A stretch of DNA of 4,510 nucleotides from a virus (lineage: Duplodnaviria; Heunggongvirae; Uroviricota; Caudoviricetes), in the IMG/VR virus record IMGVR_UViG_2724679238_000010. One strand, written 5' to 3'. The position numbers and the translations under genes are program-made. A model generated the notes under the pieces. It was not told the DNA's origin. It worked only from the letters and a program-made list of their open reading frames with translations, and made no database searches. The number at the start of each line of letters is the position of its first letter. Within the stretch, counting starts at the first letter, position 1. Below are positions 2,847 to 4,236 of this stretch, one piece after another.

Positions 2847-2999
2847 ATGGATACTATCGATCTTGGCAACAACGAATCTCTGGTGTGCGGCGTGTTCCCA
2901 AACCAAGACGGTACGTTCACCGCAATGACGTATACCAAAAGCAAAACGCTTAAAACCGAATCTGGCGCGCGTCGCTGGTTAGCCAGAAACACTGACTGA
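2847..2999 (+). CDS. small prophage protein, about 50 aa (YdaF/YdfA-like small protein family suspected); alternative start at 2769
   Basis: ATG at 2847 with GAGG (2837..2840) 6 nt upstream. Protein MDTIDLGNNESLVCGVFPNQDGTFTAMTYTKSKTLKTESGARRWLARNTD. Size and position next to the repressor match the small ydaF/ydfA-type genes of Rac/Qin-like prophages. Family assignment is from memory and is tentative. Confidence 0.5.
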   Translation: MDTIDLGNNESLVCGVFPNQDGTFTAMTYTKSKTLKTESGARRWLARNTD

Positions 3000-3376
3000 T
3001 GAGGCTGACGATGGAATTTAAAGATTTACCGTCTGATGTACAGAAAACAGCAGCTCATACATTGCATTCTGTGCTGCGAGAAATCGGGAAAGATATTGCA
3101 AGCGAGCCAGCAAAAGATCTGGCCCGGAAAATCAAGACCGCTTTCGTTGAGCTTTATAATGTTGGCACTGACTCTGAAACTGTCGAGACCAAGACCGTAA
3201 GTTCACCAATATTCTCACTTGAGCCAGGCGTATTATCAGGTGAAATATGCACCGAGATTTCCAGCGAACTGCTTCCGGTAATACGAGAAACAATTTGCCG
3301 TCGCGGTTTGGATGGAAGTTACGATCATGACGTCCTGCAAGTTCTCAGGACAATGGTGACTTCACTGGGGATTTGA
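2999..3376 (+). CDS. hypothetical prophage early protein (125 aa; alternative start 3011 gives 121 aa)
   Basis: ATG 2999 overlaps the TGA stop of the upstream gene by 1 nt (TGATG), suggesting translational coupling. ATG 3011 has its own GAGG SD (3001..3004) 6 nt upstream. No recognisable domain by eye. Confidence 0.55.
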   Translation: MRLTMEFKDLPSDVQKTAAHTLHSVLREIGKDIASEPAKDLARKIKTAFVELYNVGTDSETVETKTVSSPIFSLEPGVLSGEICTEISSELLPVIRETICRRGLDGSYDHDVLQVLRTMVTSLGI

Positions 3377-3545
3377 TCCCTGCGTCCTCTAACCTTTTGA
3401 TATAGCGGTCCTCCAAGAAGCGGTAAATTTTGTCGAAATCATCTTTCCCCTCTGATTTATTCAGAGGATTACAGGACCCGTAAGTAGCGGCATACATTTC
3501 AACCGTTTTATCAAAAATATAAGAGACAAATTCTTCTTTAGTCAT
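3345..3545 (-). CDS. hypothetical small protein, 66 aa, charged and soluble-looking
   Basis: ATG at 3543..3545 (rc) with AAGAAGGA SD (rc of 3553..3560) 7 nt upstream. Protein MTKEEFVSYIFDKTVEMYAATYGSCNPLNKSEGKDDFDKIYRFLEDRYIKRLEDAGIKSPVKSPLS. The track ORF extends to a GTG at 3630..3632, but that start lacks an SD. The 3' end overlaps the convergent gene 2999..3376 by 32 bp. Confidence 0.45.
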   Translation of the reverse strand: MTKEEFVSYIFDKTVEMYAATYGSCNPLNKSEGKDDFDKIYRFLEDRYIKRLEDAGIKSPVKSPLS

Positions 3546-3882
3546 ATAGATTTCCTTCTTGGTTATTCGGGATAAGAAGGATACCACCTCGCCTGACGTG
3601 GTTAAAAGCAGGCACACAACACGAAAGCGCACGGCGAAGTTCGTCTCACTGTACGGTGTCGTTAAATTTAATTCGACCGTGCGCTTCCGGTTGTGGCAAC
3701 CCGCGAAATGGCGCGGCGGTAAGTATGGCGGGGTTATTCCTTCCCCGTTGAGGACACCGGGTTGTCAGGTTGACCATACGCTTAAGTGACAACCCCGCTG
3801 CAACGCCCTATGTTATCAATTTTCTGGTGACGTTTGGCGGTATCAGTTTTACTCCGTGACTGCTCTGCCGCCCTTTTTAAAG

Positions 3883-4030
3883 TGAATTTTGTGATGCGGT
3901 GAATGCGGCTAAGCGCACGCGGAACAGTTAAAACCAAAAACAGTGTTATGGGTGGATTCTCTGTATCCGGCGTTAATTGTTAACTGGTTAACGTCACCTG
4001 GAGGCACCAGGCACCGCATCACAAAATTCA
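3883..4030. repeat. perfect 19-bp inverted repeat pair enclosing 110 bp with GTTAAC dyads
   Basis: 3883..3901 tgaattttgtgatgcggtg is the exact reverse complement of 4012..4030 caccgcatcacaaaattca. The enclosed region holds GTTAAC-TG-GTTAAC (3979..3992) within cgttaa...ttaacg (3971..3993). The right arm ends 5 nt before the SD of the 4048 gene. Confidence 0.7.
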
Positions 4031-4047
4031 TTGTTGAGGACGCGATA

Positions 4048-4236
4048 ATGGAAACGTTATTACCAAACGTTAATACGTCTGAAGGTTGTTTTGAAATTGG
4101 TGTCAGAATCAGTAACTCTGCATTTACTGAAGATGCCATTAACAAGAGAAAACACGAACGGGAGTTATTAAATAAAATATGCATTCTTTCAATGCTGGCA
4201 CGTTTACGCCCGATGCAAAAAGGATGCTGGCAATGA
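4048..4236 (+). CDS. hypothetical small protein, 62 aa
   Basis: ATG 4048 with GAGGA SD (4036..4040) 7 nt upstream. Protein METLLPNVNTSEGCFEIGVRISNSAFTEDAINKRKHERELLNKICILSMLARLRPMQKGCWQ. Its stop TGA (4234..4236) overlaps an in-frame ATG (4233..4235) of the next ORF. The track ORF starts at a GTG (3943) lying inside the inverted-repeat region, which I consider non-coding. Confidence 0.4.
   Translation: METLLPNVNTSEGCFEIGVRISNSAFTEDAINKRKHERELLNKICILSMLARLRPMQKGCWQ

Follow-up and report, generated by a model that had tools for sequence, protein, structure and literature searches.

A hairpin at the start of a backward prophage gene as part of a probable two-strand control cassette of the P22 sieB/sas type

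The inverted repeat at the ribosome-binding site of a 66-aa prophage gene belongs, with a probability that we put at roughly 0.6, to a portable cassette by which lambdoid prophages control a gene from both strands; its characterised prototype is the sieB promoter/sas unit of phage P22. The repeat lies in a window of 4,510 nucleotides, by which we mean the whole stretch of DNA that was analysed, and the window belongs to a lambdoid prophage of the Qin/DicF type (Qin/mEp460-type). An earlier note, made from these letters alone, had read the repeat as a hairpin that hides the Shine-Dalgarno sequence (SD) of the gene within its own mRNA. Our analysis indicates that the 66-aa gene is very probably under RNA-level control, and it suggests that the hairpin belongs to the RNA of the opposite strand.

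The 66-aa gene, its operon and its hairpin

The plus strand of the window carries a repressor gene (2123-2584), a DUF1391 gene, a 125-aa gene, the DicF small RNA, DicB (4048-4236) and a YdfD-like gene, and the minus strand carries Cro-, YdaT- and O-like genes. Since the repressor, the DUF1391 gene, DicF and DicB all lie on the plus strand, this strand is that of the early-left (dicB) operon. The 66-aa gene lies backwards within this early-left (pL) operon, with the immunity region on one side and the kil/dicB-type genes on the other, which is the position of sieB in Rac, lambda and P22; the order in Rac is racR, ydaG, ydaF (DUF1391), sieB backwards, KilS and kilR. No terminator was predicted from the 125-aa gene to DicF, and the predicted transcript of the 125-aa gene runs on antisense over the 66-aa gene. 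The 66-aa gene and a convergent gene of 125-129 aa overlap at their 3' ends both in the window (3345-3376) and in the related loci L132/L133 (2643-2698), and the two genes are co-inherited at 54-57% protein identity. In Cedecea the 66-aa gene stands without the convergent partner gene. Parts of this prophage region are found in about 44% of the complete E. coli genomes, and the exact 66-aa gene in about 7% of them, including the B/BL21 laboratory lineage, in which BL21 and BLR have the locus with 99.3% identity.

The same 66-aa coding sequence is annotated by PGAP in E. coli B strains as the hypothetical protein WP_000159335.1, and its product belongs to phrog_34441 (E = 2.3e-49), with no match in Pfam. 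Homologues down to 54% identity all start with MT(K/N)EEF, and the N-terminus MT[KN]EEFVxYIFDKTVE is invariant among them despite synonymous differences in the DNA; the gene and its start codon are therefore real. A 95-aa extension of the open reading frame with a GTG start is not conserved, and in the Cedecea homologue the frame is closed by a TAA seven codons before the ATG. The earlier note had allowed that the true start codon might be elsewhere, and the ATG at 3545 is upheld by the PGAP annotation, by the N-termini of the homologues and by this Cedecea stop codon.

The protein is highly charged and is predicted to form two amphipathic helices and a tail, without a transmembrane segment. 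AlphaFold gives a two-helix hairpin with a short tail (pLDDT 82; helices 3-22 and 31-54), and the search of PDB folds with the predicted structure returned no match better than E = 5. A tightly controlled toxic small protein, one of the options offered before our study, does not agree with these properties, as neither the sequence nor the AlphaFold model is that of a hydrophobic toxin-like peptide. We considered a type I toxin-antitoxin system and rejected it for the same reason, the product being neither a small hydrophobic nor a membrane-active toxin. Identity with the sieB/esc system was rejected as well, since the product is phrog_34441 and has no similarity to SieB; the window is a relative of that system at the level of the cassette.

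The layout of the repeat is as previously described. On the minus strand the letters read GGUA-UCCUUCUU-AUCCCGAAUAACC-AAGAAGGA-AAUCUAU-AUG, in which the arms UCCUUCUU (3581-3574) and AAGAAGGA (3560-3553) enclose a 13-nt loop (3573-3561) and are followed by 7 nt and the start codon (3545-3543). The first four bases of the 5' arm TCCTTCTT are also the last four of the predicted -10 hexamer, and the complement of the loop is the loop of the plus-strand hairpin. RNAfold returns the 8-bp minus-strand stem both as the minimum free energy structure and as the centroid. Folded in isolation, the minus-strand hairpin has -7.9 kcal/mol; its plus-strand counterpart, whose stem has 9 bp with one additional G-U pair, has -9.2 kcal/mol. 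By itself the stem is statistically ordinary, with a z of -0.22 for the 81-nt fold, and perfect inverted repeats of at least 8 bp with loops of 3-20 nt are expected about 1.6 times per shuffled window, about six distinct ones being present. The features of the locus are listed in Table 1.

Table 1. Positions of the features of the 66-aa gene locus, in window coordinates
Feature	Position	Strand	Basis
Predicted extended -10, TG-g-TATCCT	3578..3586	-	Motif and cassette variants
66-aa cargo gene (MTKEEFVSYIFDKTVE...), sieB slot	3345..3545	-	ORF list, PGAP CDS WP_000159335.1, phrog_34441
5' arm of the inverted repeat, TCCTTCTT	3574..3581	-	Sequence, fold, cassette comparison
Loop, AUCCCGAAUAACC, 13 nt	3561..3573	-	Sequence; predicted mRNA 5' end inside, by P22 annotation
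Shine-Dalgarno AAGAAGGA, the 3' arm, 7 nt before ATG	3553..3560	-	Sequence, fold, cassette comparison
Conserved block, 36 nt, GCCTG-CTTTTA-ACCAC-GT-CAGGC-GAG-GTGGT-ATCCT	3578..3613		sas homology, conservation, nhmmer
DicF sRNA	3822..3873	+	Rfam RF00039, 76.7 bits, E = 2.5e-16, full-length match
Convergent 125-aa early-operon gene, 3' end overlaps the 66-aa gene by 32 nt	2999..3376	+	
Proposed sas-like cis-antisense RNA segment	3541..3620	+	P22 sas homology, plus-strand fold

A conserved block, exchangeable cargo genes and a covarying stem

BLAST comparisons revealed that only the 60-100 nt upstream of the 66-aa gene are widely common to other phages, and that the identity often stops inside the 5' arm. 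Directly upstream of the 66-aa gene lies a conserved block (3613-3578). When IMG/VR was scanned with sequence patterns for this block, 348 instances came out, and their leaders were of 68 different kinds. The consensus in all 348 instances is GCCTG-(T)CTTTT(A/C)-ACCAC-NT-CAGGC-NNG-GTGGT-ATCCT. A scan of genome contigs with a 15-base pattern gave only chance matches in unrelated phyla, and those loci were left out of all counts. Across the more than 350 instances that were retrieved, GCCTG (window 3613) is the exact point from which the sequence is conserved, and the DNA further upstream differs by context. A single nhmmer profile recovers the window-type copies together with those of lambda (E = 3e-10), P22 (E = 5e-10) and Rac (E = 3e-5).

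Clustering by BLASTP showed that the block precedes at least 16 unrelated families of cargo genes. Each type of cargo has its own hairpin, which extends from the TCC(T) of the block to an AGGA placed 6-8 nt before the start codon, and the 3' arm ends in this way in 41 distinct cassettes. In addition, the same DicF-side context was found joined to two different cargo modules immediately after TATCCT, and the block is therefore also a module boundary. A cassette is likewise present in the e14 element of E. coli K-12, upstream of ymfI (L488, NC_000913.3 1201420-1201500), where GCCTG...GGTGG-TATGCT is followed by the hairpin GCUGG/CCAGC with a 13-nt loop. The O157:H7 strain EDL933 (NZ_CP008957.1) has two cassettes of the TATCCT type, at 1848472 and 2344511 (L490/L491).

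The block holds two overlapping 5-bp helices, GCCUG/CAGGC and ACCAC/GUGGU, whose arrangement on the plus strand would be compatible with a pseudoknot of the H type in which the third loop is A-rich. We leave this reading as a speculation because the helices are near-invariant and Rac alone has a compensatory change (GCCCGG/CCGGGC in a block helix); five singleton variants of the block break or wobble a helix pair. The reading of the region as an intrinsic terminator, where the SfV annotation places a putative one, was rejected because no U-run follows the stem on either strand.

That the stem is more than an accident is indicated by the comparison of cassettes, as covarying changes preserve the pairing across many unrelated downstream genes. 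The sample comprised the 348 instances, whose 68 unique leaders represent 41 distinct arm pairs and 16 cargo families. Among the 41 arm pairs there is no variation at stem positions 1-4. Position 5 forms a Watson-Crick pair in 85% of them, against 66% with shuffled partners (a level of 85% was reached in 1 of 2000 shuffles), and position 6 does so in 76% against 27% (0 of 2000), these counts not being probabilities, since the cassette sequences are related. At position 6 all four pair types, A-T, T-A, C-G and G-C, are used, and the mean contiguous stem length is 5.7 compared with 4.7 after shuffling. Within the family of the 66-aa gene itself, one relative (L117) has the stem UCCUUCU/GGAAGGA, and in the pair L132/L133 the stem is UCCUUUUAAG/CUUGAAAGGA, the pairing being kept though the sequence is altered. 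This covariation across unrelated cargo argues strongly for selection on the pairing, and on this comparison of cassettes the hairpin stem is an RNA feature under selection in which the SD takes part. To this extent the idea that RNA structure governs the gene, put forward in the earlier note, is upheld.

Two other origins of the repeat have to be weighed against these data. The -10 (TCCT) and the SD (AGGA) could each be under separate selection and be complementary by accident, with the extra pairs due to chance, and the invariance of positions 1-4, which leaves them without a covariation signal, together with the number of isolated 8-bp repeats expected in a window of this size (about 1.6), would suit such a by-product. 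This explanation is improbable, however, because positions 5 and 6 covary far beyond the shuffles (most clearly position 6) in 16 cargo families, and because variants with another -10 keep stems of different sequence, such as TCTTGG/CCAAGA and GCTGG/CCAGC. The second is that the repeat acts as DNA, the palindrome being an operator through which a dimeric protein of the phage or the host controls the promoter. The arms are unrelated to the ATACC-N4-GGTAT dyads of the window, and their sequence varies by cassette while complementarity is kept, which is the signature of RNA pairing and not of a sequence recognised by a protein; even though a perfect palindrome does overlap the putative promoter, we consider an operator very improbable.

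The comparison of cassettes was less decisive about the strand. In 18 of 25 cassettes the hairpin is more stable on the plus strand, and the count of wobble pairs (G-U on one strand, A-C on the other) gives five pairs that work only on the plus strand and three only on the minus strand, which favours neither. In the 57% homologue (L132), the stem has 10 bp and is better on the mRNA strand. The RNAs of both strands may fold wherever both arms are present, for example in read-through transcripts.

The greater stability of the plus-strand fold would also agree with a role of the stem-loop as a determinant of RNase III/RNase E processing, or of stability, in the precursor of DicF, with the 66-aa gene left unregulated. 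The distance from the element to DicF, which follows on the same transcript, is about 240 nt, and the dicB operon is reportedly processed (Faubladier 1990). The chances of this explanation are small, since the cassette accompanies sieB or other cargo in lambda, P22, SfV and e14 without a DicF at such a distance, the Qin prophage of K-12 makes DicF with a mere degenerate remnant of the block, and the stem tracks the SD and start codon of the cargo and not DicF.

Other arrangements of the cassette were also detected. On some phage contigs there is a pair of cassettes at a distance of about 1 kb, with a separate hairpin and small gene for each (L264, at 10317 and 11354; further L262, L275, L281 and L299), which suggests tandem arrays of cargo units. 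The remnant in the Qin prophage of K-12, in the ydfC-dicF interval (L002, 2820-2870), consists of the degenerate sequence GAAAGGATATTTCCCTGAAAAGTCAGACC with no backward gene, and it looks like the deletion of a cargo unit.

The P22 sas element and the predicted promoter

The plus strand of the window at 3582-3614, ACCACCUCGCCUGACGUGGUUAAAAGCAGGCAC, is 31/34 identical to the 3' body of the sas RNA of P22 and shares with it the GCCUG...ACCAC...CAGGC...GUGGU block. Published reads of the 127-nt P22 sas, a discrete antisense RNA of the pL strand that spans the SD and start codon of its cargo, contain ACCACCGAGCCUGACGUGGUUAAAAGACAGGCAC, and the 127-nt RNA contains ...UCUCGCUGUAGGGGUACACGAGAACCACCGAGCCUGACGUGGUUAAAAGACAGGCAC (PMC13397905). 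In lambda and Rac the same element stands upstream of sieB. The sieB/esc genes, PsieB and sas of P22 were described by Ranade & Poteete 1993 (as cited in PMC12197685 and PMC7067206), and according to the passages on this system in the same two reviews the antisense RNA sas switches translation of the sieB mRNA from SieB to Esc. The suggestion of an sRNA-controlled gene, among those made earlier, came close to the mark.

RefSeq annotates in P22 the PsieB promoter at 29690-29720, which ends with TAAACT, the start of the sieB RNA at 29727 and the ATG at 29758. The sequence reads TAAACT-CTATTC-A(+1)CCCCTACAG-AGAGT, and the RNA start is 7 nt downstream of the -10. In the P22 hairpin ACUCU/AGAGU the 5' arm overlaps the -10 (TAAACT-CT) and the loop contains the annotated RNA start; this hairpin can therefore form in sas and not in the sieB mRNA. 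The hairpin that abuts the block in P22 is a second one (hairpin 2) and not the promoter hairpin, and it is our interpretation that the promoter hairpin is the counterpart of the hairpin in the window. The motif (A/C)CCCUACA(G/A) is common to many cassette loops and to the mapped 5' end of the P22 mRNA, and in P22 and lambda it is repeated in two successive hairpins.

The order in the window is TG-g-TATCCT (3586-3578), TCTTAT, C(3571)CCGAAUAACC and AAGAAGGA. Because the DNA upstream of the block is unrelated between contexts, any shared promoter lies inside the block. The predicted extended -10 is preceded, with a 17-nt spacer to TATCCT, by a weak -35-like TTTAAC at 3606-3601 on the minus strand; a generic promoter scan of the window left the TATCCT/TTTAAC pair below its threshold and unreported. 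The invariance of TATCC in the main sample is uninformative, since these letters were fixed by the search patterns, and the test of the -10 comes from the nhmmer-derived and protein-derived variants alone. These have TATTCT, TATCTT, TATGCT (e14 ymfI), TACCCT (Cedecea) and TAAACT (P22), and they mostly keep a TGn before the TAnnnT, with variation at positions 3-5 of the hexamer. By analogy with P22, the mRNA of the 66-aa gene probably starts within the loop, at about 3573-3570, without the 5' arm, and an RNA starting at A3573 is predicted to be unstructured (-0.3 kcal/mol). From the placement of the shared promoter inside the block and the P22 geometry we infer that the stem is a feature of the plus-strand RNA. 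Among the entries examined in published tables of transcription start sites, including a Cappable-seq supplement, none matched e14 ymfI or either EDL933 cassette. A sigma-70 promoter for the sas-like RNA inside the cargo ORF was looked for in the window and in P22, and none was found.

These data bear directly on the claim that the stem occludes the SD of its own mRNA. For such a gate the mRNA would have to start upstream of 3581 and include both arms, and the SD would stay hidden in the stem until it is freed by temperature, by an RNA or protein acting in trans or by an event upstream; in a weaker version, the stem would be confined to transcripts that read through from upstream, and it would keep these silent. 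The differing contexts upstream of the block have no conserved promoter in common, the P22 start is mapped inside the equivalent hairpin, and the homologous hairpin is retained where the SD is outside the stem, namely in P22, lambda, Rac, K-12 e14 ymfI and the Cedecea copy of the 66-aa gene. A stem of -7.9 kcal/mol with a 13-nt loop would also be a modest barrier. Against these points stand the predicted minus-strand fold, in which the stem is both the minimum free energy structure and the centroid, the constant presence of the SD in the 3' arm, 6-8 nt before the start codon, in the TATCCT class, and the G-U pairs that work only on the mRNA strand in three relatives (L132, L049 and L117). We regard both versions, taken jointly, as unlikely, and occlusion of the SD in cis, as the earlier note had it, is probably wrong, given a 5' arm that lies over the -10, the P22 start and the relatives with an outside SD.

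The option of an RNA thermometer received no support either. An Rfam scan of the whole window (E <= 1) returned DicF and STnc100 only, with no match to ROSE (RF00435) or FourU (RF01795), and it likewise had no model that matches the sas-like element. The locus resembles these thermometers, and other 5' UTR hairpins that sequester an SD, in that a pyrimidine-rich strand pairs with AAGGA a few nucleotides before the AUG. In contrast to them, the 5' arm in the window is probably promoter DNA and absent from the mRNA, and the gene is a prophage accessory gene and not a heat-shock or virulence regulator.

Proposed two-strand control and its relatives

We propose that the two strands of the cassette would act as follows. 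On the minus strand, the 36-nt block would provide a weak extended -10 promoter (TGgTATCCT), and transcription from about 3573-3570 would produce an unstructured leader of about 26-28 nt with a strong, free SD. The 66-aa protein would be made in the lysogen while the early-left promoter is repressed. Upon derepression, or upon the entry of a superinfecting relative, early-left (dicB-operon) transcription would proceed antisense across the 66-aa gene. The plus-strand segment, if present as a stable RNA species, would carry sequence complementary to the AUG and the SD, together with the stem-loop and, after it, the conserved 3' domain of the sas type, and its predicted fold has the 9-bp hairpin and the GCCUG/CAGGC helix. 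In the antisense stem-loop, the loop would be complementary to the mRNA 5' end and the 5' arm (UCCUUCUU) to the SD. Pairing of the antisense RNA with the leader, together with convergent transcription, could then switch off translation of the 66-aa gene in lytic growth.

The locus is a variant of the sieB/sas control module, and the base of its stem is made up of the -10 (TCCT) and the SD (AGGA). It shares with P22 a backward gene in the early-left operon, a homologous block and an antisense strand that is the pL strand, as well as a hairpin whose 5' arm lies over a TAnnnT -10, a start site (predicted in the window) in the loop, and a 13-nt loop of the (A/C)CCC..ACA type. The differences are several. 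The cargo is an unrelated soluble 66-aa protein and not the SieB membrane protein, there is one hairpin in the window and there are two in P22, and the -10 of the window directly abuts the block. The SD itself is the 3' arm in the window, which makes the 5' arm of the antisense RNA a perfect anti-SD, and the downstream neighbour is the DicF precursor and not ral. Finally, both the promoter and the antisense RNA of the window are predictions from sequence.

Additional parallels were found outside the sieB family. In IS10, the loop of RNA-OUT nucleates on the extreme 5' end of the short-leader RNA-IN, and pairing then spreads over the SD and the start codon. The proposed loop-to-5'-end geometry of the window is the same. 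The two systems differ in that they have no sequence relationship and in that RNA-OUT has a strong promoter of its own, whereas the antisense RNA of the window probably arises within a long operon transcript or by processing of it. The locus also resembles an excludon, as the backward gene overlaps a convergent gene of the early operon and overlapping transcription would make their expression mutually exclusive; the RNA-seq survey made with ExcludonFinder identified sieB-ydaF and ymfI-ymfJ as convergently overlapping transcripts in E. coli K-12 (PMC12288877). The excludon concept needs no dedicated structured element, whereas the window adds a conserved hairpin and block.

Our reading of the locus would widen a single case from 1993, P22 sieB/sas, to a widespread regulatory module for prophage accessory genes. 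It would supply a sequence signature with which to find cargo expressed in lysogens (candidate phage-exclusion functions) and their antisense regulators, and the e14 ymfI cassette of K-12 offers a tractable copy for the study of transcription starts and antisense RNA. It also calls for caution, as what looks in the DNA like a hairpin that sequesters an SD may in reality be a promoter on one strand and the stem-loop of an antisense RNA on the other. More tentatively, and at somewhat less than even odds, the sieB-promoter/sas unit can be seen as a general portable cassette of about 65 nt in enterobacterial temperate phages, on in lysogens and off in lytic growth, that serves as the recombination joint for at least 16 cargo families. 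If this is true, one strand gives a captured gene its promoter and SD, and the other gives it a built-in cis-antisense RNA composed of a targeting stem-loop and a conserved, possibly pseudoknotted 3' domain. The cargo families exchanged at the cassette would then be likely exclusion or defence genes, and the sas-like RNAs would form a large RNA family absent from Rfam.

We also detected two features around DicF on the plus strand. A structured RNA similar to STnc100 lies at 3871-4080, in the dicB leader, with a score of 39.1 bits against a gathering threshold of 47 bits. A sigma-70-like site, GTGACA-17-TATGTT, is located at 3786-3814 and ends 8 nt before the 5' end of DicF, which may have this promoter of its own besides being produced by processing.
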